This document shows, in pieces, positions 26,631-53,736 of a stretch of DNA of 64,000 bases (position 1 is the first letter of the stretch; each line of letters begins with the position of its first letter). Position numbers and translations under genes: made by a program. Under the pieces are notes generated by a model. The model was not told the DNA's origin and did not search any database. It worked only from the letters and a program-made list of their open reading frames with translations. Origin of the DNA: an uncultured Acidobacterium sp. (GTDB lineage: Bacteria > Acidobacteriota > Vicinamibacteria > Vicinamibacterales > UBA2999); contig CAYGMD010000001.1 of assembly GCA_964350785.1 (NCBI GenBank), forward strand, positions 6,853 to 70,852, given 5' to 3'.

Positions 26631-27416
26631 TCAGCAGCCGGGTACGGCCAGCACAAACGCGCGGCCGGTCTTGAGCACCGCGGAGGCAATGAGCCCCGGC
26701 CGCCCGCGCGGCTGCTGGCGCAAGCCCATAACCACCAGGCCGGCGCCCTCGGCCACCGCGCAGCGCGAGATCTCTTCCGCCACGTCGCCACGCCTGACAA
26801 CCAGCGACGTCGGCTTGACCGGCTCGAGGCCGCGCCCGCGGTCGCGCAGTTCGGCCGCCGCATCGTGGTCGGAGACCTTGCTGCGGGCCACGGTCATCAG
26901 CACGAGCGGCTGCCCGGCCACCTGAGCCAGGCGGCTGGCCAGCTGCAGCTGGTGCTCACAAGGCATGGTCAAGTTGATGGGAGCTACCAACGGCCCGCAC
27001 GTCAGGGCCGCCCGCTCGCCCATGCTGACAATGTCGACCTCGGTTGGCGGCACCAGCAGCACCGGTGTGCGCGCCAGGCCCAGCAACGCCTCGCTCGTCG
27101 AGCCCAGCAGCAGCCGCGCCAGGCCGCCGTGACCGCGCGAGCCGACGACGATGAGCGTGGCGGCGTGGCGCAGGGCCTCGCGCTGAATGACCTCCGACAC
27201 GCGGCCGGTGGCGACAATCACCGACTCGCTCTCGATGTCGGCCTCATACGGCGCGGCGCGCTCGCACTCGGCCAGCACGCGCTGCTTCGCGCCGGCCGAA
27301 TCATCCGCGCTGACATGCAGGACGAGCAGCCGGGTGCCCAGCAGCTTTGACAAGCCGTAGGCGTGAAACAGCACCCGCCCCGTCAGCGGTCCAAGGTCAA
27401 CGGCGCACAAAATCAC
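26631..27416 (-). CDS. tandem universal stress protein (two Usp domains)
   Basis: ..ILCAVDLG.. and ..LIVVGSRGHGGLARLLLGSTSEALLGLARTPVLLV.., followed by a second Usp-like half. ORF 26631..27563. The start is uncertain; GTG at 27416 is preferred over TTG at 27563. Confidence 0.8.
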   Translation of the reverse strand: MILCAVDLGPLTGRVLFHAYGLSKLLGTRLLVLHVSADDSAGAKQRVLAECERAAPYEADIESESVIVATGRVSEVIQREALRHAATLIVVGSRGHGGLARLLLGSTSEALLGLARTPVLLVPPTEVDIVSMGERAALTCGPLVAPINLTMPCEHQLQLASRLAQVAGQPLVLMTVARSKVSDHDAAAELRDRGRGLEPVKPTSLVVRRGDVAEEISRCAVAEGAGLVVMGLRQQPRGRPGLIASAVLKTGRAFVLAVPGC

Positions 27417-29456: not shown

Positions 29457-30501
29457 CTAGCAGATGCGCGGCAGTTGCTCGCCGCTCAGCATGTCGACCA
29501 CGCGAGTCGCGCCGATGCGGCTCTTCAGCGTCACCAAGCCACGCGGGTGGTCCGACACGACACCGATGGCGCAGGCGTCGGCGCTGACGGCGTGCTGGCG
29601 CAGGATCTCGAGCGCGCGCGCGGCTTCGGCCGCCGGCACGAAGGCGATGAACCGCCCCTCGTTGGCGACATAAAGCGGATCGAAGCCGAGAATCTCGCAC
29701 GCGCCGCGCACGTCCTCGCGGATGGCAATGGCGTGCTCGTCCATGCGGATGTGCAGGCCGGTGGTCTCGGCGATCTCCACGGTGGCGCTCGCCACCCCGC
29801 CGCGGGTGAGGTCACGCAGGCAATGGATGGTGACGCCCGCCGCAATCAGGGCGAGCACCGGCGCCGCCAGCGGCGCGCAATCGCTTTCGATCGCCGACTC
29901 GAACTGCAGCCCCTCGCGGGCCGCCATCACGGCCATGCCGTGGCGGCCGATGTCGCCCGAGAGCAGCACGGCGTCGCCGGGCTGCACGCTCGCGGGGGCA
30001 ATCACGCCGTCGTACTCGATCACCCCGACCCCGGCCGTCGTCACGTACACCCCGTCGCCCTTCCCGCGGTCCACGACCTTGGTGTCGCCGGTGACCACGG
30101 TGACGCCGGCCTCGCGCGCGGCGGCCTGCATCGACTGGACGATGCGCCGCAGGCTGTCCATGGGCAGGCCCTCTTCGATGACGAAGCCGGCGCTCAGGAA
30201 CTGCGGCCGGGCGCCGCACATGGCCAGGTCGTTGACGGTGCCGTTAATCGCCAGCGTGCCGATGTCGCCGCCGGGGAAGAACATGGGCCGGACGACGTAC
30301 GAGTCGGTCGAGAACGCCAGGCGCGTGCCGGCCAGGTGGAGGTGCGCGCCGTCGTGGTGCGCGTGGTGCGACGGATCGCCGAACGCTGGCAGGAACAGGC
30401 TGTCGATCAACTGGTTGGTGAGCCTCCCGCCGCCGCCATGCGCCATCAGCACGTGCGTGTGATCGCCAATCGGCACCGCGCAGGTGGGGCCTGCGGACAG
30501 G

Positions 30502-30512
<11 letters not shown>
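29457..30512 (-). CDS. hypE: hydrogenase expression/formation protein HypE
   Basis: Start at [14 protein letters not shown]... AIR-synthase-like fold motifs. Diagnostic C-terminus ..GEQLPRIC. Confidence 0.95.
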
Positions 30513-31625
<1,113 letters not shown>

Positions 31626-31629
<4 letters not shown>

Positions 31630-31883
31630 GACCCTTCCCCTTCCTCGAGCTCGGCCAGCTCGCCCATCTGCTCGAGATAGGTGAACACCTGGCGCGCCTC
31701 GTCCTCGTCGACCGTCGAGATGGCAAAGCCCACGTGCACCAGCACGAAGTTGCCGACCACCGCGTCGGGCACGTAACTGAGATTCACGCGCTTCACCACG
31801 CCGGCGAAGTCGACCCGGCCGCTGCGGAGCACGGGGTCGTCACCGTCGATCGTGAGGATGCGTCCAGGGATGGCGAGACACAT
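31626..31883 (-). CDS. hypC: HypC/HybG/HupF-family hydrogenase assembly chaperone
   Basis: Start is [12 protein letters not shown].. (the essential N-terminal Cys2) after AAGGAGAG. ATGA overlap with hypD. Confidence 0.9.
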
Positions 31884-34183
31884 TGAGGGCTCTCCTTGGC
31901 TCGAAGACAGGCGGCGATTTGTCCCAGGGCGATGCCGCCGTCGTTGGGCGGCACGCGCTGGTGCCAGTACGGCCGGAACCCGGCCTGGCGCAGCCTCGTG
32001 ACGGCGCGCTCCACGAGATACCGGTTCTGAAAGCACCCGCCGCTCAGCACGACGGCGGTCTCGCCGGCGGTCTCGGCGGTGGCCAGGATCATATCGGCCA
32101 TGGCGTTGTGGGCGCGCGCGGCGATGATCCCGACCGCGACTCCCCTCGCGGCATCGTCAACCACGGCCCGCACCATGGGCGCCCAGTCGATCACCAGGCG
32201 CGGCGCCTGCCACGTGCCGATGGCGAAACGATGCCCCCGCTCGGTGAGCGCGAAGGGATAAGCGTCGCTGACGCCAGGCGCGATCGCAAACTCCAGGTCC
32301 ATGGCCGCCTGCCCCTCGAAGCTCGATCGCTGGCGGAGGCCGGCCAGCGACGCGATCGCGTCGAACAGCCGGCCCGCGCTCGTCGTGACGGGCGCGTTCA
32401 GCCCTCGCCCCATCGCGTCGATCAGCAGGAGGGATTCGCCGGCCGTGAAGGCCGCGGCGGCCGCCGGCGCGACGGGCGCCGCCGTCTCGCGGGCGATGGC
32501 GTGCAGGGCCCCCAGCGCCGAGCGGCGGGGCTCCTTGATCGCGCGATCGCCGCCGGGCAGCTGGAAGGGCCGCAGGCAGGCGACTCGCGTGAACGAGGCC
32601 GCATCCACGGCGAAGAACTCGCCGCCCCAGACCGTGCCATCGAGGCCGTAACCCGTGCCGTCCCAGGCCACGCCGAGCGCGCGGCCATCGAGCTGGTTCT
32701 CGGCCATGCAGGCCGCGACATGCGCCACGTGATGCTGAACATGCGTGACCGGCAGGCCGAGCGACGCCGCGTGCCGGGTCGATCGATAGTCGGGATGCCG
32801 GTCGGCGACGACGGCGACGGGCGTGATCCCGTACAGGCACTGGAGATCGCCAATCACCTGGACGAACGCCGCGCTCGCCTCGACCGATTCGAGATCGCCG
32901 ATGTGCTGGCTGACGATCACCTCGCCGCCGTTGGCCAGCGCCACGCTGTTCTTGAGATGCGCACCGACCGCGAGCAGCGGCGGTGACGACGGCGCGATGG
33001 GTACCGGGAGCGGGGCGTAGCCGCGCGCCCGGCGCAGCACCAGCTCGCGATCGAGGATCACGCGGACAATCGAATCGTCCACGTTCCGGACGATGGGGCG
33101 ATCGTGCACGAGGAACAGGTCGGCAATCGCGCCGAGACGGTCTACGGCCTCGCGTTCATCGGTGCAGATGGGCTCATCGGCCCGGTTGCCGCTGGTGGCC
33201 ACCACCGGTCCGCCGAGGTCACCCAGCAGCAACGCGTGGAGGGGCGTGTACGGCAGCATCACGCCGAGATTGGGATTGCCGGGCGCCACGGCCGGCGCCA
33301 GTCCCGGCCCGGCATGGCTGCGCCTGGCGAGCAGCACGATCGGCGCCTCCGCCGACGTCAGCAGCCGGCGCTCCGGGGCCGTCACGACGCAGTCGCGATC
33401 CAGCGATGCCAGGTCCGGGTACATCACGGCGAACGGCTTCTCTTCGCGGTGCTTGCGGGCGCGCAAGCGCCGGATGGCCTTTTCGTTGGCGGCATCGGCA
33501 ACGAGGTGGAACCCGCCCAGGCCCTTGACGGCGACAATCTTCCCGTCGCGAATCGCGCTGACCGCCGCGCGCGCGGCCGCGTCGGCCGCCGCGAATGGCC
33601 GGCCGGACGCGTCCCAGGCGGCGAGGCCCGGGCCGCAGCGCGGGCAGGCATTCGGCTGCGCATGGAACCGCCGGTCGCAGGGGTCGTGGTATTCGCGCTG
33701 GCACTCGAGGCACATCGTGAACCGGCGCATCGACGTGTGGTCGCGGTCGTACGGCATCGCGTGGATGATGCTGAACCGCGGGCCGCAGTTGGTGCAGTTG
33801 GTGAACGGGTAGCGGTAGCGGCGGTCGGCGGGGTCGAACACCTCGCGGCGGCAGTCATCGCACAACGCGAGGTCAGGCAGCACGAGTGTCGAGAACGCAC
33901 CGTCGCGGACGCTGTCGAGGATCTGGAAACCCGAGTGGCCGGCCGGGTCGAGCCACGACGCTTCGAGGGTGTGAATCGCGGCGTGTGGCGGCCGCTCGCC
34001 GGTCAGGCGGGATCGAAATACGTCCAGGTCCTGGCGGCGGCCCTCCACTTCGATGACGACGCCCAGGGTCGAGTTGCGGACCCAGCCGTCGAGCCGCAGG
34101 TCGCCGGCCAGGCGGTAGACGAATGGGCGAAAGCCGACGCCCTGAACGGCACCCCGGACCGCGAGCCGCAGGCGTTCACGCAT
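31793..34183 (-). CDS. hypF: carbamoyltransferase HypF
   Basis: Acylphosphatase-like N-terminus (..[19 protein letters not shown]..), two CxxC zinc-finger pairs, and YrdC-like and Kae1-like domains. Its 3' end overlaps hypC by 91 nt. Confidence 0.95.
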
Positions 34184-34835
34184 GGCCGGCCGTCAGTCTT
34201 GCCATCAGCCAGTCACCCCATTCGGCGACGCCAAAGCGCGAGGTCGCGGCGGTTTCGAAGATCACCAGGCGCGGATTGATCTGCCGGGCATGCCGTTTGA
34301 TCTCGGCAATGTCCACGGTCACGTAAGGGAGCAGGTCGACCTTGTTGATGATCAGGACCGAGGCCTTTCGGAACATCGCCGGATACTTCAACGGCTTGTC
34401 AGCGCCTTCGGTGGTGCTGAGCACAACGACCTTGAGGGTTTCGCCGAGGTCGAAGTTGGCCGGGCACACCAGGTTGCCGACGTTTTCGATGAACAGCAGG
34501 TCGACCTGGTCGAGGTTGAGGCTGGCGACGGCGTCGGCGACGAGGTTGGCTTCAAGATGGCAGCCACCGTTGGTCACGATTTGCACCACGGGTACGTGGT
34601 ACTTCGCGACCCGCTGCGCATCGATGTCGGTCTGGACGTCGCCTTCGACCACCGCGATGCGGGCGCGATCGCGCAACTGTTCGATGGTGGCCTCGAGCAG
34701 CGTGGTCTTGCCGGCGCCGGGCGAGCTGAGGATGTTCACCGCCAGCACCCCGTTGCGCGCGAACAGCTCGCGGTTGACGGCCGCCAGCTCGTCGTTTTTC
34801 TGCAGGACCTTGCGTTCGATCGTGACCACGCTCAT
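34176..34835 (-). CDS. hypB: hydrogenase nickel-incorporation GTPase HypB
   Basis: ..NILSSPGAGKTTLLE.. P-loop, ..CHLEA.., ..ENVGNLVCPA.. and ..INKVDL.. motifs. Confidence 0.95.
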   Translation of the reverse strand: MSVVTIERKVLQKNDELAAVNRELFARNGVLAVNILSSPGAGKTTLLEATIEQLRDRARIAVVEGDVQTDIDAQRVAKYHVPVVQIVTNGGCHLEANLVADAVASLNLDQVDLLFIENVGNLVCPANFDLGETLKVVVLSTTEGADKPLKYPAMFRKASVLIINKVDLLPYVTVDIAEIKRHARQINPRLVIFETAATSRFGVAEWGDWLMARLTAGHA

Positions 34836-35194
34836 GACGCCCTCTCCCTCGCGTCGTCGAGCTCGACGTCCACGACGTGAAGCTCGTCACCGTGCCGGAT
34901 CGCCATGCCGAGCGCTCCGCACGACGGGCACACGAACTGCGCGCCCGACAGCCCGGTCACCCGGCCACATTCGCTGCAGACCGCCTCGGCCGGCACGCGA
35001 TCGATTTCGAGCACCGCCGCGGCATACGGCGTGCCGGCCACGATGGCGGCGAAGCAGAACGCGAGGGAATCCGGCACCACGCCCGCCAGGTCGCCCACCC
35101 GCACGCGGACCGCGCGCACCCGCGCGGCATCGGCGTCGCGCACGTTGTGCTGGACGATGTCGAGGATGCCGGCGGCGAGCGTCAGTTCATGCAT
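34832..35194 (-). CDS. hypA: hydrogenase maturation nickel metallochaperone HypA
   Basis: Start is MHELTLAAGILDIV.. (the MHE nickel-binding N-terminus). CxxC..CPxC zinc site (CSECG.. / CPSCG..). Confidence 0.9.
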   Translation of the reverse strand: MHELTLAAGILDIVQHNVRDADAARVRAVRVRVGDLAGVVPDSLAFCFAAIVAGTPYAAAVLEIDRVPAEAVCSECGRVTGLSGAQFVCPSCGALGMAIRHGDELHVVDVELDDARERAS

Positions 35195-35753
35195 CGCGGG
35201 CCTCCGAGACGGCGGCGAGCCGTCCCACGTCCACGGCATCGCCGTCGGCCGACGCAAAGGCCACGGCTTTCGGCCGGAACGGGAAGCCCAGCGTTGCGGC
35301 CTCGTCGGCGACGCGGGCGACGAGGTGGTCGAGCCCGCCGGCCACGGCCGGCGTCAGGCCAATGCCCAGTTCGATCGATTGCGGCACCAGCCCGAGCAGG
35401 ACAACGCGCGCGGGGTAGCGATCGAGCCAGCGGGCGCCGTCCAGCAGGTCGGCGACCCCCACCTGGTGGGGCGACAGCCGGGCGGCGACTGCCGGCGGGA
35501 CCTCGTCGCCGTCGAGGCGCACGAAGCTGCCCGGCGCCTCGTCGGCGCGAACGGCATCCACCAGGATCAGCGCATCGGCCTGGTCGAGGTACGGCAGCAG
35601 CGACAACCCCAGCGTGCCGCCGTCGAACACCCGCACGCCGGCCGGCGCGTCGTAGCGATCGCGCAGCCGCGTCACGGCCGCCGACCCGACGCCGTCGTCC
35701 TCGAGCAGCACGTTGCCGAGGCCCAGCACCAGCAGTGGCGTGCGTTCATTCAT
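35187..35753 (-). CDS. HyaD/HybD-family hydrogenase maturation endopeptidase
   Basis: ..LVLGLGNVLLEDDGVG.., ..LILVDAV.. and ..SPHQVGV.. motifs. Confidence 0.9.
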   Translation of the reverse strand: MNERTPLLVLGLGNVLLEDDGVGSAAVTRLRDRYDAPAGVRVFDGGTLGLSLLPYLDQADALILVDAVRADEAPGSFVRLDGDEVPPAVAARLSPHQVGVADLLDGARWLDRYPARVVLLGLVPQSIELGIGLTPAVAGGLDHLVARVADEAATLGFPFRPKAVAFASADGDAVDVGRLAAVSEARDA

Positions 35754-36474
35754 CGAGCTGGCCCTTCCGGTTGATGAAGCGATAGCCGGAATGCACGAGG
35801 TCTTCCGGCGGGACGAACTTGTAGCCCGAGAAGATCGACTCCATGGTGGCGTTGGCCTCGACGGTGGACATCAGGACGGCACTGTAGACGTGATGCACGG
35901 CGAAGCCGAGGAGCAGCCACATCACCGCGTGATGAATCCAGCGCACGACCTGCACGCCGCCGAGGAGCGGGGCCAGCGACGCGAACCAGGCAACCGGGGA
36001 GCCGACGTCGGCGCTGCCGCTGCGCAGGGTCAGCCCGGTGAGGATGGCCACGAAGTAAAGGCCGAACACCAGGGTGTAGGTGGCGCCCGCGACGGGATTG
36101 TGGCCGACGAAGCCGGGCGGCTTGCGCATGGCGAACAGGTAAAACTTGATGGTCGGCCACAGGCCGTGGCGCCGCAACGGGTGGACGGGCACGAACTTGT
36201 CCCAGCGCGCGTACTTGTTGCCGGTGAACATCCAGATGATCCGCATGGTCACCGCCGCGATGAAGACATACGCGGTGTAGCCGTGGATCACCTTGACCCA
36301 GCCCATGAAGAACGAGTCACCGGCCGGGCCGGGTACCGTGACGTAGGGGCGGCCGATGTAGAAGCCGGTCATCGCGAGCACGACGATCGACAGGGCGATC
36401 AGCCAGTGCGAGACCCGCACCGGGACCTCCCACACGTAGACCTGAACGCGCCGGGTCGAAGCGACGGCGGTCAT
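35746..36474 (-). CDS. cybH: Ni/Fe-hydrogenase b-type cytochrome subunit
   Basis: Start is MTAVASTRRVQVYVWEVPVRVSHWLIALSIVVLAMTGFYIG.., aa 71 of ORF 35746..36684. Four TM helices with conserved His. ATGA overlap with the large subunit. Confidence 0.9.
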   Translation of the reverse strand: MTAVASTRRVQVYVWEVPVRVSHWLIALSIVVLAMTGFYIGRPYVTVPGPAGDSFFMGWVKVIHGYTAYVFIAAVTMRIIWMFTGNKYARWDKFVPVHPLRRHGLWPTIKFYLFAMRKPPGFVGHNPVAGATYTLVFGLYFVAILTGLTLRSGSADVGSPVAWFASLAPLLGGVQVVRWIHHAVMWLLLGFAVHHVYSAVLMSTVEANATMESIFSGYKFVPPEDLVHSGYRFINRKGQLDE

Positions 36475-38177
36475 ACCACCCTCACGCTCGCCAGGGTGCG
36501 GCGCGTGCCATCCACGACGTGGACGCCGCAGGCCATGCACGGGTCGAAGCTGTGGACCGTGCGCAGGATCTCGATCGGCCGCTCGGCGTCGGCAACGGGC
36601 GTTCCGATCAGAGCCTCCTCGTAAGGTCCGCGGCGTCCCCTGGCATCGCGGGGGCCGGCGTTCCAGGTGCTCGGCACGACGCACTGATAGTTCTGAATCA
36701 GGCCGTTGCCGATCTTCACCCAGTGCGCCAGCGCCCCGCGGGGGGCTTCATGGAACCCGGCGCCCATGGCCTCGGCCGGCCACGACGAGGGCTCCCACTT
36801 GCTGGTGTCGTGGATGCGGTAGTCGCCGGCATCCATGTTGGCGGCCAGCGCATCGACCCACTCCTCCATCTTCTCGGCCAGCAGCTGGGTCTCGATGCCC
36901 CGGGCCGCGACCCGGCCCAGCGTCGAGAACAGGGCCTCGGGACCGACGCCGAGCGCCTTGAGAACGCCGTCCACCAGCGTCTTCACGCGCGGCTGGCCCG
37001 AAACATAGGCGACCAGCATGCGGGCCAGCGGGCCCACTTCCATCGGCTCGTCGGCGTAGCGCGGCGACTTGAGCCACGAGTACTTCTTGTCGGTGTCGAG
37101 CCGCTCGTAGGGCGGCGTCGGGCCGGTGTAGTTGGGCGCGGTTTCGCCGTCGAAGGGGTGCAGCGACGCGTCGTCGCCCTTGGCGTAGTCGTACCAGGAA
37201 TGGGAGATGTACTCCGACACCTTGCTCGGATCGAACGTTTCGGTCTTGGCGATATCGCGGCCGCGGATGATGCCGCTCGGAATGAAGAGCGCGGGCGAGG
37301 CGGTGTCGTCGTCGGGATACTCGCCGTAGGCGAGGTAGTTGCCGACGCCGCGGCCGTGCCCGGCCCAGTCCTTGTAGAAGCCGGCGATCGCCAGCAGGTC
37401 CGGAATGTAGACGCGGACGACGAAGTCGCGGGCCCGCGCCACCAACTGCTTCAGCTCCGCGATCGTGCCGGCGTTGAGCGCCGACTGGCTGTTGGGATCG
37501 ATCGGCGTCGACATGCCGCCGACCAGGAAGCTCTGCAGGTGCGGGTTCTTGCCGCCGAGCACGGCGTGCAGCTTGATGAACTCGCGCTGCCAGTCGAGCG
37601 CTTCGAGGTAGTGGGCCACGGCCATCAGGTTGGCCTCGGCCGGGAGGCGATAGGCCGGGTGGCCCCAGTAGGCGTTGGCGAACGGCCCGAGCTGGCCGCG
37701 TTCCACGAACGCCTTCACGCGATCGCGGACGCCGGTGAAGTAAGTCGGGCTCGACAGCGGCCAGTCGGATATCGACTGGGCCAGCGACGCCGTCTTCGCG
37801 GGATCGGCCGACAGCGCCGACACGATGTCGACCCAGTCGAGCGCGTGCAGGTGGTAGAAGTGCACGACGTGGTCCTGCACGCACTGCGCGCCGATGATCA
37901 GGTTGCGGAGCAGCCGCACGTTCGGCGGCGGCGCCGAGCCAATGGCGTTCTCGACCGCGCGGATCGAGGCGATGGCATGCACCGTGGTGCAGACGCCGCA
38001 GATGCGCTGGGTAAACGCCCACGCGTCGCGCGGGTCGCGGCCCTTGAGGATCATCTCGATGCCGCGGAACATCGTCGACGACGACCAGGCGTCCTTGACG
38101 ACGCCGCCGTCGACTTCGGCCTCGATGCGCAGGTGGCCCTCGATGCGGGTGACCGGATCGACGATTACGCGGCTCAT
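36471..38177 (-). CDS. [NiFe]-hydrogenase large subunit (membrane-bound uptake type)
   Basis: ..DPVTRIEGHLRIE.., ..RICGVCTTVHAIAS.. and a C-terminal ..HSFDPCMACGVHVVD.. with a cleavable extension. Confidence 0.97.
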   Translation of the reverse strand: MSRVIVDPVTRIEGHLRIEAEVDGGVVKDAWSSSTMFRGIEMILKGRDPRDAWAFTQRICGVCTTVHAIASIRAVENAIGSAPPPNVRLLRNLIIGAQCVQDHVVHFYHLHALDWVDIVSALSADPAKTASLAQSISDWPLSSPTYFTGVRDRVKAFVERGQLGPFANAYWGHPAYRLPAEANLMAVAHYLEALDWQREFIKLHAVLGGKNPHLQSFLVGGMSTPIDPNSQSALNAGTIAELKQLVARARDFVVRVYIPDLLAIAGFYKDWAGHGRGVGNYLAYGEYPDDDTASPALFIPSGIIRGRDIAKTETFDPSKVSEYISHSWYDYAKGDDASLHPFDGETAPNYTGPTPPYERLDTDKKYSWLKSPRYADEPMEVGPLARMLVAYVSGQPRVKTLVDGVLKALGVGPEALFSTLGRVAARGIETQLLAEKMEEWVDALAANMDAGDYRIHDTSKWEPSSWPAEAMGAGFHEAPRGALAHWVKIGNGLIQNYQCVVPSTWNAGPRDARGRRGPYEEALIGTPVADAERPIEILRTVHSFDPCMACGVHVVDGTRRTLASVRVV

Positions 38178-39289
38178 TTGCGGCCTCCCTCGCTGCCGGC
38201 CGGAGGTATCGGCTCGTACTTGTCACCAACCCGCTTGCCGATCTGAATCAGGCCATGGGCCGCGAAGGCGGCGGCCACCGCGGCCACCGCGCCAAGACCA
38301 ATGGTGTCGATGTTCGAGGCCGCGCCAAAGCCCGGCACGCCGGGCAGGTGCTGGTAGAAGGGCGTCATCGTGTCCCAGAAGTTGGGCTCGGAGCAGCCGA
38401 TGCAGGGATGACCGCAGCCAATCGGCCAGTTCGTGCCGCCGTTCCACTTGATGTGGGGGCAGTTCTGGAACGCAACCGGTCCCTTGCAGCCCATCTTGTA
38501 CAGGCAGTAGCCGGCACGGTGGCCCGCGTCGCCCCACTCTTCGACGTACTGACCCGCGTCGTAGTGCGCGCGGCGCTCGCAACCGTCGTGGATCGACTTG
38601 CCGTACGCAAACAGCGGCCGCCGGTAGCGATCGAGCGCGGGCCACTCCTTGAACGTAAGGTAGTGCACGAGCAGCGCGGTCAGGTTTTCGACGTTGGCGG
38701 GACAGGCCGACAGGTTGATCAGGTTCTTCACGCCCGGCACCGCCGCCGACACGCCCAGCGCGCCGGTGGGGTTGGGGCCGGCGGCCGGGATGCCGCCAAA
38801 CGAGGCGCACGTGCCGATGGCAATGGTCGCCATCGCCTGGCCGCACACCTCGCGCGCGATGTCGAGCGCCGAGCGGCCGCCAATCGTGCAGTAGGCGCCA
38901 CCCGCGCCGGTGGGAATGGACCCCTCGACGACGGCAATGTAGGCGCCGGACCGCTCCTTGACCGTGCGCGCCAGGTTGGCTTCGGCCTGGTGGCCGGCCG
39001 CCGCCATGATCGTCTCGTGATAGTCGACCGACAGCGTATCGAGGATCACCTCGGCGGCCGTCGGACGGCTCGCGCGCAGGAACGACTCGGTGTTCCCGGC
39101 GCAATCCTGGAACTCGAGCCAGACCAGCACCGGCTTCTCGGCCGCCCGCACCGCCCGCGCAATCTGGGCGGCGGCCGAGTCGGGTAGTGCCAGCGCCGAC
39201 GCCATGGCGGCGCAGAAACCGACGAACTCGCGCCGGGTCACACCACGGCGCTCGAGCTCCGACGCCAACCAGTCGGGTTGGTTCCTCAT
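38174..39289 (-). CDS. [NiFe]-hydrogenase small subunit with Tat signal and C-terminal membrane anchor
   Basis: Start is MRNQPDW.. after GAGGGAGAG. Twin-arginine motif ..RRGVTRREFVGF... FeS motifs ..GTCASFGG.., ..YCLYKMGCKGP.. and ..GHPCIGC... C-terminal TM ..IGLGAVAAVAAAFAAHGLI... Confidence 0.95.
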   Translation of the reverse strand: MRNQPDWLASELERRGVTRREFVGFCAAMASALALPDSAAAQIARAVRAAEKPVLVWLEFQDCAGNTESFLRASRPTAAEVILDTLSVDYHETIMAAAGHQAEANLARTVKERSGAYIAVVEGSIPTGAGGAYCTIGGRSALDIAREVCGQAMATIAIGTCASFGGIPAAGPNPTGALGVSAAVPGVKNLINLSACPANVENLTALLVHYLTFKEWPALDRYRRPLFAYGKSIHDGCERRAHYDAGQYVEEWGDAGHRAGYCLYKMGCKGPVAFQNCPHIKWNGGTNWPIGCGHPCIGCSEPNFWDTMTPFYQHLPGVPGFGAASNIDTIGLGAVAAVAAAFAAHGLIQIGKRVGDKYEPIPPAGSEGGRK

Positions 39290-39444
39290 GGCTCTCCCTC
39301 GCTTTCGCGCCGGCCGCCCGCAGCCGCGATCGGGCCGCGCCATTCCTTGACGCGGACCCAGACGGCGATGGTGATGGGAATGAGCGCGCTCACTGCGGGA
39401 ACGAGCGCCGATGCCGCCGCGAGCTCCTCGTGGTGCCGCCTCAT
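39286..39444 (-). CDS. candidate 52-aa single-TM protein, translationally coupled to the hydrogenase small-subunit gene
   Basis: ATG at 39444 with AGGAG 7 nt upstream. Sequence MRRHHEELAAASALVPAVSALIPITIAVWVRVKEWRG... Its TGA overlaps the small-subunit ATG (ATGA). Codons are GC3-rich. No homology evidence is available. Confidence 0.4.
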   Translation of the reverse strand: MRRHHEELAAASALVPAVSALIPITIAVWVRVKEWRGPIAAAGGRRESEGEP

Positions 39445-39522
39445 ACCGTGGCTCCTGTGGCGCCGGATTGTGATGTGACGTGGAGGGGCCAATGCGGGAA
39501 CCGCCCTTCCGCGAACGCGGGG

Positions 39523-39538
39523 TGCAAGGCCTACGCCA
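39523..39538 (-). promoter_or_regulatory. candidate sigma-54 (-24/-12) promoter of the hydrogenase operon
   Basis: Minus strand reads TGGCGT-AGGCC-TTGCA with correct GG/GC spacing. It lies about 80 nt upstream of the ATG at 39444. Confidence 0.55.
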
Positions 39539-39545
39539 GCGCAAG

Positions 39546-40386: not shown

Positions 40387-40762
40387 ATGGCAACAGCCCC
40401 CCCGCGAATGCCGGCGCCGGTGACCTGGCCGCCGGGTGCGCCCTGATCGAGGTCCACGTCGGCGAGCTGAAACAGCTCTTCAACTCGCTCGACCCGACGC
40501 CGTTTCGCGAACGCGACCTCGATCCCAAGGCCGAGGAGTTCATCGCCGGCTGGGCCAGCGAGCTGCACGGCGACGCACCGTTGTGCCTGGTGGTCCACGT
40601 CGACCGCGGCGACGTCGCGGCGGCCGAGGTGACGATGCTGCGCGAGGCGGTCGGCGGCCGCTCGAGGTGTTCTTGTACGACTGGTGGCCCATCCGCGCCG
40701 AGGCGCGGCGTTACGATCGCCTCAGCGTGATGTCGGTCCGCGTGATTCCGTCACATCAATGA
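40387..40762 (+). pseudogene. disrupted gene of a conserved membrane-protein family (N- and C-terminal parts only)
   Basis: ATG at 40387 runs into a C7 run (40397-40403). With one extra C it would read MATAPPANAGAGDLAAGCALIEVHVGELKQLFNSLDPTPFRERDLDPKAEEFIAGWASEL..LREAVGG. After about 40655 a third frame gives RPLEVFLYDWWPIRAEARRYDRLSVMSVRVI. The TM-rich middle expected from my recollection of this family is absent. Confidence 0.55.
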
Positions 40763-41640
40763 ACCGGCTTCACCTGTAACGTGCGGATGTACTCGACCAG
40801 CGAGTCGATGCGCTGCTTCACGGCGGCTTCATCCCCGCCGTCGTGCGAGCGGGCGAAGGCGTCGCCCCACACCGGCATGTCGGGGCCGCCATGCCCGCGC
40901 ACCGGCGTCCTGCCGTCAATGGTGCGATACACGATCTCCGACGGGTACTCGCCGCCGTTGCGCTTGGCGATCTCGGTGAGGTCGGCCGGCTTGCGGCGCA
41001 TGGCACCTGCCAGCGGGCCGTCACCGCGGCCCGCCGGGCCGTGGCAGGTGGCGCAGTAGGTGCGGAACACCTCGCCACCGGTGACGTGTTGGCGCAGCTC
41101 CGCCTGCGGTTGCGCCGCTGCCGGCGACGCCAGGAAGGCGGCCAGGATGGCCGCGACCACGACGCTGGCTTTGGCGGAGCGGACGGGTTCATCGGCCCGC
41201 GGCTCGCGCACGGTCAGGACCGGACACGGCGCCGTGCGCACCACGCGCTCGGCCACGTTCCCCATCACCGCATGCATCAAGGGCCCGTGCCCGTGCGTGC
41301 CCATCACGATGAGATCGTCGCCGCGCTTGGCGGCGGCCGTGACAATCGCCCGCGGCGGATTGCCGAACAACACCTCCGTCGTCACGGCGACGCCCGCCAG
41401 CTTCGGCACCACTTTCAGGAGTTCGCGCTCGGCCTCGTCACCGAGTTGCTGGCTCCAGTTCGTGTAGGCGATGGCATAGGCGTCCATCGACCCGGTGCTG
41501 AGCGACGGCACCTCGCAGACGTGCAGGAGGTGCAGTGACGCGCCGAACTTGGTGGCCATGGTGTACGCGTAATCGAGGGCGCGTGCGGAGTTCGAACTGA
41601 AGTCCACCGGAACGAGGATGCTCTTGATGTCGGGCGTCAT
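40756..41640 (-). CDS. universal stress protein fused through one TM helix to a class-I c-type cytochrome domain
   Basis: Start is MTPDIKSILVPVDFS.., the last 294 aa of ORF 40756..43092. The Usp domain ends ..ERVVRTAPCPVLTVR. Then ..RSAKASVVVAAILAAFLASPAAAQP.. follows, then ..FRTYCATCHGPAGRGDG.. with ..GGPDMPVWG... There is no in-frame stop between the parts. Confidence 0.8.
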   Translation of the reverse strand: MTPDIKSILVPVDFSSNSARALDYAYTMATKFGASLHLLHVCEVPSLSTGSMDAYAIAYTNWSQQLGDEAERELLKVVPKLAGVAVTTEVLFGNPPRAIVTAAAKRGDDLIVMGTHGHGPLMHAVMGNVAERVVRTAPCPVLTVREPRADEPVRSAKASVVVAAILAAFLASPAAAQPQAELRQHVTGGEVFRTYCATCHGPAGRGDGPLAGAMRRKPADLTEIAKRNGGEYPSEIVYRTIDGRTPVRGHGGPDMPVWGDAFARSHDGGDEAAVKQRIDSLVEYIRTLQVKPVH

Positions 41641-41680
41641 GGCCTGGCCCCTTTCTGGATAGTCGCTCGCCTCTTGCAAG

Positions 41681-41696
41681 GGCAACGTCCATGCCA
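41681..41696 (-). promoter_or_regulatory. candidate sigma-54 (-24/-12) promoter of the Usp-cytochrome c gene
   Basis: Minus strand reads TGGCAT-GGACG-TTGCC, about 40-55 nt upstream of the ATG at 41640. Confidence 0.6.
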
Positions 41697-41775
41697 GCCC
41701 GATCTGTCGGCCGGACGGGCCTGGCGCGGCCGATCGCACTGCGACATTTCCAACGACGTGAGGAAAAATCCGCGC

Positions 41776-41791
41776 TGGCCCGGTCCGTGCA
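41776..41791 (+). promoter_or_regulatory. weaker sigma-54-like element upstream of the acyl-CoA synthetase gene
   Basis: TGGCCC-GGTCC-GTGCA, then GGAGGA, then TTG at 41815. Confidence 0.4.
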
Positions 41792-43960: not shown

Positions 43961-44452
43961 CTAAGCTTTCGCCGCCGCGATCAGCGCGTCGGGGGCAATG
44001 AAGTCCCGCTCGTTCGTGCGCACCGCCAGTACCGGGCACGGCGCCGTGCGCACCACCCGCTCGGCGGCGCTGCCCAGCAACAACTGCTTCACGGCGCCGC
44101 GGCCGTGCGTGCCAACGACGATCAGGTCGATGGCGTTGGCCTTGGCGTACTCGGTGATGCCGCCGGGGACGTTGAAGCTGGTTTGCACCACGCCGACCAC
44201 CTTGAGGGTCTTGCGATCGTCCTCGGTGATCAAGGCGTCGAGGTCGCGGTGCGCAGCCTTCTCCAGGTCGCGCTGGAGATCCGGGATCGCAAAGCCCACT
44301 TCGGGGCTGTAGCGCATCATCACGTCCTCCACGACGTGCAGCACGTGGAGGGTGGCGTTGTACGAGCGGGCCAGATCACGGCCATACGCCATGGCGACAG
44401 CCGACGGCTCACCGAAGTCGGTGGCAACGAGGATGTTCTTCAGCACAACCAT
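43961..44452 (-). CDS. universal stress protein (UspA family)
   Basis: MVVLKNILVATDFGEPS.. and ..LIVVGTHGRGAVKQLLLGSAAERVVRTAPCPVLAVR... Confidence 0.9.
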   Translation of the reverse strand: MVVLKNILVATDFGEPSAVAMAYGRDLARSYNATLHVLHVVEDVMMRYSPEVGFAIPDLQRDLEKAAHRDLDALITEDDRKTLKVVGVVQTSFNVPGGITEYAKANAIDLIVVGTHGRGAVKQLLLGSAAERVVRTAPCPVLAVRTNERDFIAPDALIAAAKA

Positions 44453-44501: not shown

Positions 44502-44517
44502 AGCACAATACATGCCA
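44502..44517 (-). promoter_or_regulatory. candidate sigma-54 (-24/-12) promoter of the Usp gene
   Basis: Minus strand reads TGGCAT-GTATT-GTGCT, about 50-65 nt upstream of the ATG at 44452. Confidence 0.55.
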
Positions 44518-45093: not shown

Positions 45094-45558
45094 ATGATTA
45101 ACCCCTCTTTCGGACACCAGACGCCGCCGGGCACCGGAATGCCGCCGGGTCCGCTGGAGAACGCGACCGGGCCGGCCGAGCGGCCGGCGCCGCGCACCGC
45201 CCTGGTCGTCGACGACGAGGCGCTCATCCGCTGGTCGGTCAGCGAGACGCTCGGTGAGTTGGGCTTCGACGTCGCGCAGGCCGCCGACGGCGCCTCGGCA
45301 ATGAGCGCCATTGCCGGCGCCGCCGCGGCCTTCGACGTCGTGGTGCTCGACCTGCGGTTGCCCGATGTGAACGACCTGTCGCTGCTGGGCCACGTGCGCG
45401 AACTGCTGCCGGCGGCCATGGTGGTGCTGATGACCGCCTTTGGCACCGCCGAAGTGGTGGCCGGCGCCCAGGCCCTCGGCGTCGCCGGCATCCTCAACAA
45501 ACCCTTCGAACTCGCCGAACTCAGCCGCCTGCTGACGCGCGACGGGCCGGCTTCGTAA
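45094..45558 (+). CDS. stand-alone response-regulator receiver protein (paralogue of 44563..45036)
   Basis: ..ALVVDDEALIRWSV.., ..DVVVLDLRLPD.. and ..LNKPFELAELSRLL... Confidence 0.85.
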   Translation: MINPSFGHQTPPGTGMPPGPLENATGPAERPAPRTALVVDDEALIRWSVSETLGELGFDVAQAADGASAMSAIAGAAAAFDVVVLDLRLPDVNDLSLLGHVRELLPAAMVVLMTAFGTAEVVAGAQALGVAGILNKPFELAELSRLLTRDGPAS

Positions 45559-46928
45559 TGGCCAATGCCACGATCCTGATCGTCGACGACGAGCAGTTGA
45601 TCCGCTGGTCGCTGGCCAGCCGCCTGAAGGACGAAGGTTACCGGATCCTCGAAGCCGGCACCGCCGCCGAAGCCCTGTCGCAACACCGCGAGGGCGTCGA
45701 CCTGGTGCTGCTCGACATCGGCCTGCCCGACGCCAGCGGGTTGTCGGTGCTCAAGCAGATCAAGGAATCGGATCCCGATACGCTGGTCATCATGCTGACC
45801 GGCCAGACCGGCGTGCAGACCGCGGTCGAGGCGATGAAGAACGGCGCCTTTCATTACGCCAACAAGCCGTTCGATCTCGACGAGGTCGTGCTGCTGGTCG
45901 AGAAGGCGCTCGAGACGACGCAGTTGCGCCGCGAGGTCCGCACGCTGCGGGCCCGGCAGGCCCAGCCCTACGGCCCCGAAAGCATCGTCGGCGAAAGCGC
46001 GCCGATCGTGGCGGTGCGGGCCATGCTGCAGAAGATCGGCGTCAGCCCCGCGTCGACCGTGCTGCTGACCGGCGAGAGCGGCACCGGCAAGGACCTGGCC
46101 GCCAAGGTCATTCACTACAGCAGCAACCGCGCCGCGCGGCCGTTCATGAACATCACCTGCTCGGCGCTGCCCGAGACGCTGCTCGAAAGCGAGCTGTTCG
46201 GCCACGAGCGCGGCGCCTTCACCGGCGCCGACCGGCAGAAACGCGGCCTGCTCGAGTCGGCCGACGGCGGCACGGTGTTCCTCGACGAGATCGGCGAGAT
46301 GGTGCCGCTGCTGCAGGCCAAGCTGCTGCGGTTCCTCGAGGAGAAGTCGTTCAAGCGCGTGGGCGGCTCGGCCGACGTCAAGGTCGACGTGCGCGTGATC
46401 GCCGCGACCAACCGTTCGTTGCAGGAAGAGGTCAGGAAGGGCCACTTCCGCGAAGACCTGTTCTATCGCCTCAACGTGATGGCGGTGCCGCTGCCGCCGT
46501 TGCGCGAGCGGCGGGACGACATCCCGCGGCTGCTGCGCCACTACATCGACCTGTTCAACGTCGAGTTCCGCAAGAAGATCGTGGGCGTGTCGCCCGGCGC
46601 GATGAAGGCGCTGCAGGCCTACGCCTGGCCCGGCAACGTCCGCGAATTGCGCAACGCCGTCGAGCGGGCCATGCTGCTGACCGAGAGCGCCGAGTTGTCG
46701 GAGGCGCAGTTTGCCATGCTCGGGGCGCCGGAGGGCGAGTTGTCGACCGGCATGGGCTTGCCGGCCAGCGGTATCAACCTCGAGGAGCTCGAACGGTCGC
46801 TGGTGGTGCAGGCGCTCGAACGCAGCGGCTGGAACCAGACCAAGGCGGCGACGCTGCTCGGCCTCAACCGCGACCAGATCCGCTACCGCATCGAGAAGTT
46901 CAAGCTGGAGAAGGCAACTCCACGGTAA
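45558..46928 (+). CDS. sigma-54-dependent Fis-family response regulator (NtrC-type bEBP)
   Basis: REC domain (..ILIVDDEQLIRWSL.., ..LVLLDIGLPD..), AAA+ domain with ..GESGTGKD.. and the ..GAFTGA.. sigma-54 contact loop, and a C-terminal Fis-type HTH ..NQTKAATLLGLNRDQIRYRIEKF... Confidence 0.93.
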   Translation: MANATILIVDDEQLIRWSLASRLKDEGYRILEAGTAAEALSQHREGVDLVLLDIGLPDASGLSVLKQIKESDPDTLVIMLTGQTGVQTAVEAMKNGAFHYANKPFDLDEVVLLVEKALETTQLRREVRTLRARQAQPYGPESIVGESAPIVAVRAMLQKIGVSPASTVLLTGESGTGKDLAAKVIHYSSNRAARPFMNITCSALPETLLESELFGHERGAFTGADRQKRGLLESADGGTVFLDEIGEMVPLLQAKLLRFLEEKSFKRVGGSADVKVDVRVIAATNRSLQEEVRKGHFREDLFYRLNVMAVPLPPLRERRDDIPRLLRHYIDLFNVEFRKKIVGVSPGAMKALQAYAWPGNVRELRNAVERAMLLTESAELSEAQFAMLGAPEGELSTGMGLPASGINLEELERSLVVQALERSGWNQTKAATLLGLNRDQIRYRIEKFKLEKATPR

Positions 46929-48695: not shown

Positions 48696-48711
48696 TGGCA
48701 TGGAGGATGCT
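48696..48711 (+). promoter_or_regulatory. candidate sigma-54 (-24/-12) promoter
   Basis: TGGCAT-GGAGG-ATGCT, 22 nt upstream of the ATG at 48733. Confidence 0.5.
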
Positions 48712-51895: not shown

Positions 51896-52921
51896 ATGTC
51901 GGCCCGGTTCGTGTTCGTGGTTGGTGCGCTCGCGGTCTGCCTGCTGGCAGCCGCGGCGCCCGCCGCAGCGCCGGCGGCGCCCGCTGACGACGACTGCCTG
52001 GCGTGTCACGGCGACAGCACGGCGACTCGAGCCAACGGCTCGAGCGTCGCGGTGGCGCCGGACCTGCTCGCCAAGTCGGTCCACGGCACGCTCACCTGCG
52101 TGAGCTGTCATGCCGGCCTGGCCAAGACCACCGAGTGGCCGCATCCCGAGAAAGTCGAGGCGGTCGCCTGCTCGACCTGCCACGGGCAGGAAGGCAGCAA
52201 CTACGACGACAGCGTGCACGGCCGGGCCGTCCTCAAGAGCGGCCTGGCGGTCGCGCCCCGCTGCGGCACCTGCCACGGCACCCACAACATCCAGCCCCCA
52301 TCCAACACCGACAGCAGCGTCCATCGCGCCAGGATCGTCGGCACCTGCACGACGTGCCACGAGGGCATTGCGCCGTGGTACGCGAAGAGCGTGCACGCGC
52401 AGCCGCTCGGGCCCGCGGGCGGCGCGGCGGCGGTGTGCTCCGACTGCCATACCGCGCATCGGATCCAGCGCGGCGACACCGACGGCTGGCGCCTGGCGGT
52501 GATCGACGAATGCGGCACGTGCCACTTACAGCGCATCTCGTCGTACCGCGACAACTTCCATGGCCAGAAGACCACGCTCGGCTCGACCCGCACCGCCACC
52601 TGCAGCAGCTGCCACGATCATCACGCGATCCTGCCGGCGGGCAATCCGGCCTCGACCGTCGCGCCGCAGAATCTCGTGGCCACCTGCCGCGGCTGCCATC
52701 CGCAGGCGAGCGCCGCGTTCGTCAAGTACGACCCGCACGCCGACAAGCACGACCCGGTCCGCAGCGCGCCGGTCTACTGGACCTATCGGTCCATGCAGGT
52801 GCTGCTGCTCGGGGTGTTCGCGTTTTTCGGGGCGCACACGCTGCTCTGGTTCCCGCGGTCGTACCGGGCGCGGCGTGAGCGGCGCGCGGCCGCGGCGGCC
52901 ACAGGGGACACCTCATCATGA
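51896..52921 (+). CDS. nonahaem c-type cytochrome with a C-terminal TM helix
   Basis: Signal peptide. Nine CxxCH motifs (CLACH, CVSCH, CSTCH, CGTCH, CTTCH, CSDCH, CGTCH, CSSCH, CRGCH). TM ..VLLLGVFAFFGAHTLLWF... Confidence 0.85.
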   Translation: MSARFVFVVGALAVCLLAAAAPAAAPAAPADDDCLACHGDSTATRANGSSVAVAPDLLAKSVHGTLTCVSCHAGLAKTTEWPHPEKVEAVACSTCHGQEGSNYDDSVHGRAVLKSGLAVAPRCGTCHGTHNIQPPSNTDSSVHRARIVGTCTTCHEGIAPWYAKSVHAQPLGPAGGAAAVCSDCHTAHRIQRGDTDGWRLAVIDECGTCHLQRISSYRDNFHGQKTTLGSTRTATCSSCHDHHAILPAGNPASTVAPQNLVATCRGCHPQASAAFVKYDPHADKHDPVRSAPVYWTYRSMQVLLLGVFAFFGAHTLLWFPRSYRARRERRAAAAATGDTSS

Positions 52922-53736
52922 CCTCCGGCGCCCGTCACATCGTCCGGTTCAAGCCGTATCAGCGGGCGATGCACTTCGTCCTGTTCACCAGCTTTCTCGG
53001 CCTGGCGGCGACCGGCCTGCCGTTGATGTTCAGCGACCGCCCATGGGCGGGCACGCTGGCGCGCGGCCTCGGCGGCATCCAGATGGCCGGCGTGCTGCAC
53101 CGGATCTTCGCGGTGATGCTGCTGGCGCTGTTCGCGGGCCATCTCGCCGAGTTGGCGTGGCGGCTCACGCGGCGCAAGGAGCACGGCCTGCTGTGGGGGC
53201 CGACCTCGATGATCCCGCAGCCGCACGACGCGGTGCAGATCTGGCAGCACGTCCTGTGGTTCGTCGGCAAGGCCGCGCGGCCCCACTTCGACCGCTTCAC
53301 CTACTGGGAGAAGTTCGATTACTGGGCCGTCGTCTGGGGCATGGTCATCATCGGCGGATCGGGACTGTTGCTCTGGTTCCCGGAATTCTTCGCCACGTTT
53401 TTCCCGGGCTGGATCTACAACGTGGCACTGATCCTGCACGGTGAAGAAGCCCTTCTGGCGACGGGCTTTATCTTCACGATACATTTCTTCAACAGCCACT
53501 TCCGGCCCGAGAAGTTCCCGATGGACATGGTGATGTTCACGGGGCGGGTGACCGAGGAGGAGCTGCGGAGCGAGCGCCCCGCCGAGTACGCGCGGATGGC
53601 GAACGACGGCACGCTCGACACGCTGGTGTCACCGCCCGCCCCCGGCTGGCTTTCGCTGGCCGGCCGCGTGGTCGGCGGCGCGGCCGTGGCTCTCGGTCTC
53701 GTGTTGCTGGTGTTCATCCTTGTGGGGACGTACTAA
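52918..53736 (+). CDS. b-type cytochrome membrane subunit (FdnI/HydC/Ni-Fe-hydrogenase cytochrome b-like)
   Basis: ATGA overlap with the nonahaem gene. ..IVRFKPYQRAMHFVLFTSFLGLAATGLPL.. resembles the family N-terminal motif. About 5 TM helices with His in TM1, TM2 and TM4/5. Confidence 0.75.
   Translation: MTSGARHIVRFKPYQRAMHFVLFTSFLGLAATGLPLMFSDRPWAGTLARGLGGIQMAGVLHRIFAVMLLALFAGHLAELAWRLTRRKEHGLLWGPTSMIPQPHDAVQIWQHVLWFVGKAARPHFDRFTYWEKFDYWAVVWGMVIIGGSGLLLWFPEFFATFFPGWIYNVALILHGEEALLATGFIFTIHFFNSHFRPEKFPMDMVMFTGRVTEEELRSERPAEYARMANDGTLDTLVSPPAPGWLSLAGRVVGGAAVALGLVLLVFILVGTY

Follow-up and report, generated by a model that had tools for sequence, protein, structure and literature searches.

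Universal stress proteins (Usps) are abundant in stress and hypoxia regulons, and their mechanisms are poorly understood. c-type apocytochromes are exported via Sec. For a single open reading frame (ORF) that releases a c-type cytochrome by way of an internal signal peptide, the nearest conceptual precedent is the cytochrome b/c1 precursor FbcH of Bradyrhizobium japonicum, in which one ORF with an internal signal-peptide-like segment reportedly yields two proteins after post-translational cleavage. On the regulatory side, the low-oxygen regulon of the NtrC-like regulator NmpR in Myxococcus includes a USP and a CBS protein (PMC11841059). Here we describe a gene that brings these themes together in a 64,000-nucleotide stretch of DNA from an uncultured Acidobacterium sp. 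of the order Vicinamibacterales (GenBank assembly GCA_964350785.1, contig CAYGMD010000001.1, positions 6,853 to 70,852), hereafter the window. The gene joins a Usp domain to a class-I cytochrome c through a hydrophobic segment that is apparently still a functional, cleavable signal peptide.

The ORF runs uninterrupted for 294 codons plus a stop (Table 1), and both its ATG and the N-terminus MTPDIK are kept among homologues. Residues 158-176 (ASVVVAAILAAFLASPAAA) form the sole hydrophobic segment of the product, with a Kyte-Doolittle mean of 2.13. An earlier, sequence-only reading of this DNA had proposed a single 294-codon frame without a stop, composed of a Usp domain, a hydrophobic segment and a class-I cytochrome c domain and bearing the motifs G-x2-G-x9-G-N, CATCH and DMPVWG. 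Reading the ORF confirmed the frame, while Pfam, hydropathy and an alignment of 42 homologues bore out the three parts; all of the motifs were found and are invariant, or nearly so, in that alignment. The topology that it had proposed, with the Usp in the cytoplasm and the haem domain in the periplasm, is supported as N-in/C-out by the positive-inside pattern and by the requirement of haem attachment for an exported cytochrome c.

The fusion is real and widespread within one lineage. The protein search space comprised 5.8 billion proteins in 90%-identity clusters and spanned NCBI, JGI, ENA and Logan assemblies. It held more than 120 independent full-length clusters (296-311 aa, 64-99% identity, 99-100% coverage), in most of which both Pfam domains were detected. 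In a scan of one genome per GTDB species, the full-length gene was present in about 20 genomes, nearly all of them labelled Acidobacteriota/Vicinamibacterales; the few labelled otherwise are suspected to be mislabelled bins. When 1.84 billion proteins were clustered at 50%, a single full-length representative was left, and the architecture is thus restricted to one narrow clade. No published description of a Usp-cytochrome c architecture was found in literature searches, in agreement with the sequence-only reading, which knew of none, and the sequences already have public database entries with automatically assigned names, such as "universal stress protein [Vicinamibacterales bacterium]" at NCBI and "UspA family protein/mono/diheme cytochrome c family protein" at JGI. 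Comparison with the NCBIfam models gave no family-level assignment, every score lying far below its cut-off.

It had been a concern that an indel at the junction might have joined two genes. In all 120 homologues, the linker follows the end of the Usp domain and precedes the CXXCH motif in the same collinear arrangement, and a frameshift, indel or assembly artefact is excluded by this collinearity together with the more than 120 uninterrupted clusters and the roughly 20 genomes. We likewise give next to no weight to a recent, pseudogene-like fusion in which a lost stop or a frameshift joined a normal usp and a normal cytochrome c gene here alone. Separate, adjacent usp and cytochrome c genes do occur in relatives (L023, L054, L066 and L069), but the identical uninterrupted frame recurs in clusters and genomes from many studies. 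This shared frame argues that the fusion event is ancient and has been maintained, and the neighbouring separate genes of the relatives indicate that it probably arose by the joining of adjacent genes.

The strongest evidence on the nature of the protein comes from the linker, for which we compiled statistics from the 120 homologues. Its sequence is highly variable, and its organisation is constant: a charged n-region with a basic end is followed by an h-region of about 14-15 residues and a c-region broken by proline. The uncharged run has a median length of 24 residues. Relative to the predicted cut, Pro occurs within positions -4 to -9 in 113 homologues, Ala at -1 in 115 and at -3 in 100, and Gln at +1 in 112; the (-3,-1) rule holds in 118 of the 120. 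AxA stands at the boundary in 99 (83%), whereas at positions inside the same Ala-rich runs the figure is 9%. Ten homologues are exceptions in that they lack Ala-1/Gln+1 where the uncharged run ends; they carry AxAQ, or AAA|H in P0083 (the bar marks the cut), either there or a few residues away. Stand-alone relatives of the cytochrome half, which are either monohaem (about 145-150 aa) or dihaem (about 250-270 aa), begin at the equivalent of residue ~153 and show the same n-h-c organisation in an N-terminal signal peptide that ends in AxA|Q.

Because this organisation is kept in the 120 homologues, and because the stand-alone relatives start at this very place, the segment is, as judged from sequence comparison, descended from a signal peptide: it shares homology with the one at the N-terminus of those relatives, and its cleavage determinants are under selection. 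It is apparently still functional, with a strictly conserved AxA|Q site for signal peptidase I. The conserved Gln at +1 makes sense only as a future N-terminus. In Bacteroidetes, it is documented that the signal peptidase I pathway uncovers a Gln at +1, which is then cyclised to pyroglutamate (PMC5837995); this serves here as an analogy only. The segment departs from an ordinary signal peptide in that it is not N-terminal and begins at about residue 153, behind a folded domain of 145 residues. Export by the Tat pathway was set aside, as the n-region has no twin-arginine and apocytochromes of the c type take the Sec route.

We consider it somewhat more probable than an even chance that the gene encodes a precursor under sigma-54 control, that the internal signal peptide of this precursor takes the cytochrome into Sec export, and that cleavage by signal peptidase I then gives a soluble periplasmic cytochrome c and a membrane-attached Usp. 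Transcription would start from the sigma-54 promoter, and the NtrC-type activator and PAS kinase encoded nearby would probably control it. The gene would belong to a low-oxygen or energy-limitation regulon with the divergently transcribed ADP-forming acetyl-CoA synthetase, a second Usp, CBS and BON proteins and, here, a [NiFe] uptake hydrogenase. The N-terminal Usp domain would fold in the cytoplasm, after which the internal signal peptide (residues ~153-176) would enter the Sec translocon N-in. The C-terminal apocytochrome would then be translocated and haem attached at C196/C199/H200, and signal peptidase I would cut after A174-A-A176. Cleavage at the predicted site, A176|Q177, would split the protein into a Usp-plus-tail part with a computed mass of 18.5 kDa and an apocytochrome of 12.8 kDa. 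One product would be a soluble cytochrome c of about 13 kDa that starts at Gln177, possibly cyclised to pyroglutamate; the other, the 18.5 kDa Usp, would be held on the inner membrane face by its C-terminal hydrophobic tail. The consequence would be 1:1 co-production of the two proteins and placement of the Usp at the membrane, with no trans-membrane signalling wire.

The same linker could instead be a signal anchor. In that case the product would be an uncleaved bitopic protein, in which the cytochrome c is tethered, as in cytochrome c_y or Bacillus c-550, and the Usp serves as a regulatory or dimerising appendage. The single ORF and the single 19-residue hydrophobic segment are in keeping with this, as are an uncharged run long enough to span the membrane and the conservation of the fusion, with both domains constrained, in about 20 species. 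The closest fold match of the cytochrome half, ActE of alternative complex III, is moreover a membrane-associated monohaem subunit. A mere anchor, however, needs no Pro-x(3-8)-A-x-A|Q, which is kept in 112-118 of the 120 homologues while other linker residues drift, and the conserved cleavage determinants thus argue against it. The helix predicted by AlphaFold2 covers residues 157-170 only, which is just 14 residues. We therefore regard an uncleaved protein as possible but unlikely.

The history of the locus also bears on this choice. In the orthologous locus L076 (P0272; 4001-4459), which has the promoter, start codon and synteny of the fusion loci, the Usp has been deleted in frame, and MTPDIKTIL is joined straight to the h-region to give an ordinary pre-cytochrome. 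Conversely, L021 (10001-10507) has undergone a deletion of about 440 bp relative to its close relative L005, and it has lost the signal peptide and cytochrome, with the Usp left. Among the 118 clusters nearest to the cytochrome domain, 27 show in-frame loss of the Usp (22 complete and 5 partial), and the 22 complete deletions retain the Usp N-terminus MTPDIKRILVP... without the domain. These losses are repeated and independent, since their junctions and nearest fused relatives differ. The more distant Acidobacteriota L023, L054, L066 and L069 have usp followed by a separate cytochrome c gene with its own start and signal peptide, and in L032 the order is cytochrome c and then usp, beside the acetyl-CoA synthetase gene. 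Given that each half has been lost alone and that relatives have split genes, the fusion probably arose from neighbouring, co-regulated genes and is mechanistically not obligatory. From the independent deletions and the stand-alone and split relatives, it follows that the halves are separable, and most likely separated after export.

Two observations on this history stand apart. In the Usp deletions (P0272, P0299, P0305, P0317, P0326 and others), the first 7-11 residues (MTPDIKRILVP) have been turned into an ordinary n-region, and one locus thus shows an unusually dynamic history of fusion and defusion that includes the reciprocal deletion of signal peptide and cytochrome. In addition, one metagenome-assembled genome with the full-length fusion has a second copy (L018, 18537-19064), which follows genes for a receiver protein and a homologue of Usp2. 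It stops within a hydrophobic tail that has degenerated (…AVTAMGAVDAVMLAVL*), and the cytochrome is missing; it may represent either a duplicate in decay or a Usp with a tail anchor.

A stronger form of the uncleaved reading, in which the periplasmic redox state is relayed to the Usp, accounts in our view for a small part of the probability of an uncleaved protein. Against such a sensor stand the lack of a signalling module and the lack of conserved residues in the transmembrane segment and linker; both the tethered and the sensing forms are also at odds with the repeated loss of either half at one locus and with the split-gene versions in relatives. The sequence-only reading had suggested that a stress module "hard-wired" to a redox centre in the periplasm has a trans-membrane redox-sensing or tethering role. 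The sensing idea is not supported, in view of a segment that is a signal peptide with a conserved AxA|Q, stand-alone relatives that begin at the hydrophobic segment, the single deletion of either half (L076 and L021; 27 of 118) and the split genes of relatives.

Two polypeptides could also be made if translation started internally near the end of the Usp domain, which would yield an independent, normal pre-cytochrome c. In the window, the codon of Val144 (LTVRE) is GTG, and a start there would give MREPRADEPVRSAK plus the h-region; in some homologues a Met directly precedes the h-region, as in KKKMEMAVAG. The sequence-only reading had located the only in-frame GTG inside the helix, which overlooked the one at Val144, but its view that there is no plausible internal start is upheld. 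Codon 144 in 21 orthologous genes is GTG in 8, GTT in 6, GTC in 3, GTA in 2, ATC in 1 and CGG in 1, so that it is GTT, GTC, GTA or ATC in 12 of the 21. No Shine-Dalgarno-like sequence precedes either in-frame GTG of the window, nor is there, across the 21 genes, any other conserved in-frame start that comes with a Shine-Dalgarno sequence. An internal start as a conserved feature is ruled out by this variation and by the missing Shine-Dalgarno sequence, and we consider the two-polypeptide scheme very improbable. With no conserved internal start, the cytochrome is therefore made only as part of the precursor.

Several points weigh against a cleaved precursor with the role proposed above. The fusion has been retained, with both halves strongly constrained, across 57-99% identity, and such retention is needless if the halves act wholly apart. 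The uncharged run is slightly longer in the fusions than in the stand-alone relatives (medians of 24 and 21), which could favour retention as an anchor. We know of few bacterial proteins that are cut by signal peptidase after a large N-terminal domain. Position 128 of the Usp domain is Asn (at least 90% conserved), where ATP-binding Usps have Ser or Thr. Lastly, the suggested role under low oxygen is drawn from the gene neighbourhood only.

A further variant, which we rate as quite improbable, would couple processing to export. The signal peptidase I cut would act like a "site-1" cleavage, and the stubbed Usp with its transmembrane tail would be a substrate for a site-2 protease or signal-peptide peptidase, such that the Usp would be freed into the cytoplasm, or held at the membrane, only upon successful export of the cytochrome c. 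If true, the making of a periplasmic electron carrier would be linked to a stress regulator that binds nucleotides, and bacteria would be using an internal signal peptide in a new way.

Both halves of the predicted precursor resemble well-characterised families. The Usp part scores 123.8 bits against PF00582 (cut-off 24), with residues 6-145 corresponding to profile positions 3-141, and all NCBIfam equivalog scores are far below their cut-offs. AlphaFold2 models it as an alpha/beta fold with a predicted local distance difference test (pLDDT) score of mostly 75-97, and it matches the solved ATP-binding Usps 3loq, 1wjg, 2pfs and 1mjh. G114-x2-G117-x9-G127-N128 constitutes a nucleotide-binding-like motif, and P11-V-D13 and the three Gly are invariant; nucleotide binding by this part is plausible, with Asn128 standing where the solved structures have Ser or Thr. 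Cys42 (HVCEVP) and Cys139 (APCPVL) of the cytoplasmic Usp are invariant in the 42-sequence alignment, Cys139 being replaced in at least one genomic orthologue (L018), and a thiol switch involving the pair is possible. Two more Usp genes lie in the window at 27051-27413 (-) and 43961-44452 (-), with 30% and 38% identity to the Usp half of the fusion, which makes the region a Usp-rich island.

In the cytochrome half, residues 188-288 match PF00034 (Cytochrom_C) with 27.6 bits (cut-off 21.3), and PF13442 (Cytochrome_CBB3), at 24.9 bits, is just under its cut-off of 27. C196, C199, H200 and M255 are invariant, giving a single CXXCH near the start of the domain and a distal Met in its C-terminal half, and these residues are the predicted sites of haem ligation. 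His250, five residues before the distal Met (GHGGPDMPVWG), is invariant in the 42-sequence alignment and could possibly provide alternative haem ligation. The closest PDB entries by sequence are the dihaem Kustc0457 partner protein 6h5l_B (E 4e-12) and then cytochrome c552 (E 1e-6). In the full-length AlphaFold2 model the cytochrome domain is unusable (pLDDT 30-45), whereas the Usp and the short helix are usable; a haem-free, domain-only model reached a pLDDT of 72.5. With this moderate model, the meaningful Foldseek matches were all class-I cytochromes (ActE, c552, c6, c555 and XoxG), although weak (E 6e-3 to 0.8, TM-score about 0.5).

Table 1. Features of the fusion gene and its control region, with coordinates in the window.
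Feature	Position	Strand	Basis or remark
Complete coding sequence: Usp / predicted internal signal peptide / cytochrome c precursor	40756..41640	-	ATG 41640, TGA 40758..40756
Usp domain, residues 6-145, cytoplasmic	41206..41625	-	Pfam PF00582, E 1e-35
Charged linker / signal-peptide n-region, residues 146-157, EPRADEPVRSAK	41170..41205	-	variable; basic end adjoining the hydrophobic run (120 homologues)
h-region and c-region, residues 158-176, ASVVVAAILAAFLAS-PAAA	41113..41169	-	predicted signal peptidase I cut between bases 41113 and 41112
Predicted mature periplasmic class-I monohaem cytochrome c, residues 177-294, 12.8 kDa apoprotein	40759..41112	-	PF00034
Haem-binding motif C196-A-T-C199-H200	41041..41055	-	sequence; invariant in 42 and in 52 homologues
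Met255 of GHGGPDMPVWG, presumed distal haem ligand	40876..40878	-	invariant residue; role as ligand presumed
Sigma-54 type -24/-12 promoter TGGCATGGACGTTGC	41682..41696	-	exact TGGCAY-N5-TTGC match, -56 from ATG
Shine-Dalgarno-like GAAAGGGG, 7 nt 5' of ATG	41648..41655	-	block CCAGAAAGGGACC conserved in upstream-region alignment
Conserved intergenic blocks GGAnnnnnTCC (41762-41771) and TGGAAATGTCGC (41741-41752)	41741..41771		alignment of 11 upstream regions
Divergent sigma-54-like element TGGCCCGGTCCGTGCA, 5' of ADP-forming acetyl-CoA synthetase gene	41776..41791	+	positional conservation
NtrC-type sigma-54 activator (receiver + AAA+ + HTH_8), likely regulator	45558..46928	+	Pfam; synteny in at least 13 loci

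The -24/-12 promoter that had been proposed for the gene is borne out. TGGCAY-N5-TTGC is matched exactly by TGGCATGGACGTTGC (TGGCAT-N5-TTGC) and nowhere else in the 64 kb window. Of 21 orthologous loci, 20 have the element, placed between -44 and -61 relative to the ATG, and so does L076, while the flanking DNA diverges. The divergent TGGCCCGGTCCGTGCA element is found at the equivalent place in L001, L002, L005, L020, L021 and L022. GGAnnnnnTCC and TGGAAATGTCGC are conserved candidate sites for a shared activator (bacterial enhancer-binding protein) between the divergent promoters. Together, the blocks and the two divergent promoters resemble a bidirectional sigma-54 control region that is kept in several orthologous loci. 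One-mismatch sites number 9 in the window against 8.45 expected by chance, so that only their positions are suggestive: 44503-44517 (-) lies just upstream of Usp2 (start 44452), 39524-39538 (-) between the BON and hydrogenase small-subunit genes, and 48696-48710 (+) upstream of an ORF or DUF4136 gene near 48.7-49.5 kb.

The syntenic set shared by at least 13 loci consists of genes for a DUF4136 protein, a CBS protein, a PAS histidine kinase, the NtrC-type activator, one or two receivers, Usp2 and the acetyl-CoA synthetase. This conserved neighbourhood is divergent from the fusion gene, with a BON protein next in some loci, and the activator is the likely regulator of the fusion. As a whole, the gene set resembles low-oxygen or energy-starvation regulons, and by this analogy the fusion may have such a role. 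In the window, the fusion is followed on its own strand by a BON gene and then by the complete operon of a [NiFe] uptake hydrogenase, maturation genes included. A conserved linkage to hydrogenase was rejected, since hydrogenase genes are downstream in the window and in L010 only. The membrane-bound hydrogenase cluster at 29457-39544 (-) encodes a small subunit with a Tat-type signal, a large subunit, cytochrome b, a HyaD-type protease, HypB, HypF, HypD and HypE; the ORF of the small subunit (TTG 39544) is probably over-extended, with a likely start at MRNQPDW... near 39286. Elsewhere, at 51896-53733 (+), a multihaem cytochrome c with c7/c3/NapC-NirT-like motifs is followed by a relative of cytochrome b561 / Ni-hydrogenase cytochrome b, and this pair may be another membrane electron-transfer module.

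Each part of the protein belongs to a well-known family, and it is the combination for which we found no published description. What makes it interesting is, first, that a stress domain of the cytoplasm is followed by a conserved internal signal peptide that appears to be cleavable; second, that the two domains have been lost reciprocally and repeatedly; and third, that a well-defined sigma-54 module is found in a soil lineage still uncultured. By being tied to one particular electron carrier of the periplasm, the Usp would gain a functional partner that can be tested and a defined place in the cell, at the inner face of the membrane. Should the internal signal peptide be cleaved, the gene would be a rare bacterial case in which one ORF gives two proteins for two compartments by means of signal peptidase, and the repeated in-frame loss of either half provides natural "experiments" within the family. 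Vicinamibacterales are a dominant but largely uncultured soil group. The locus defines a conserved sigma-54/NtrC-type module of this order, with acetyl-CoA synthetase, Usps, CBS, BON, cytochrome c and, here, hydrogenase, which bears on how its members may persist under oxygen or energy limitation.

Set beside known systems, the fusion shares features with several. Like the ATP-binding single-domain Usps (MJ0577, 1mjh; Thermus TTHA0895, 1wjg; and the E. coli UspF/G class), it has a full-length Pfam Usp domain, an N-terminal PxD and G-x2-G-x9-G, but it differs from them in the Asn after the third Gly and in a C-terminal extension with a signal peptide and an exported domain. The membrane-anchored cytochromes c (Rhodobacter c_y, Bacillus CccA and ActE 6lod_E, the last being the best Foldseek match of the cytochrome domain at E 6e-3 and TM-score 0.53) also have a class-I monohaem domain outside and an N-terminal hydrophobic segment. 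Their anchors, however, are uncleaved or lipidated and they have no large cytoplasmic domain, whereas the fusion has a conserved canonical AxA|Q. In FbcH, the c-type cytochrome is said to be paired with the polytopic membrane cytochrome b that belongs to its own complex; in the fusion it is paired with a stress protein that is soluble and cytoplasmic and for which no connection with electron transfer is known. In the NmpRSTU system of Myxococcus xanthus (PMC11841059), an NtrC-type activator, a kinase and receivers control a single-domain USP, a CBS-domain protein and respiratory components. The window presents a similar cast beside a conserved sigma-54 promoter, as compared by gene content, and differs in its Usp-cytochrome fusion, which is not reported in the Myxococcus system. 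Also among the closest are the stand-alone mono- and dihaem proteins of the "mono/diheme cytochrome c family" in Vicinamibacteria (PF13442/PF00034; for example P0190, P0215, P0230, P0283 and P0378), whose cytochrome domain is 50-70% identical and has the motifs YCAxCHG...GDGPLA...DLT...NGG.FP...IDG...HGG.DMPVWG in common with the fusion; they differ from it in that the Usp domain is absent and the signal peptide is N-terminal.

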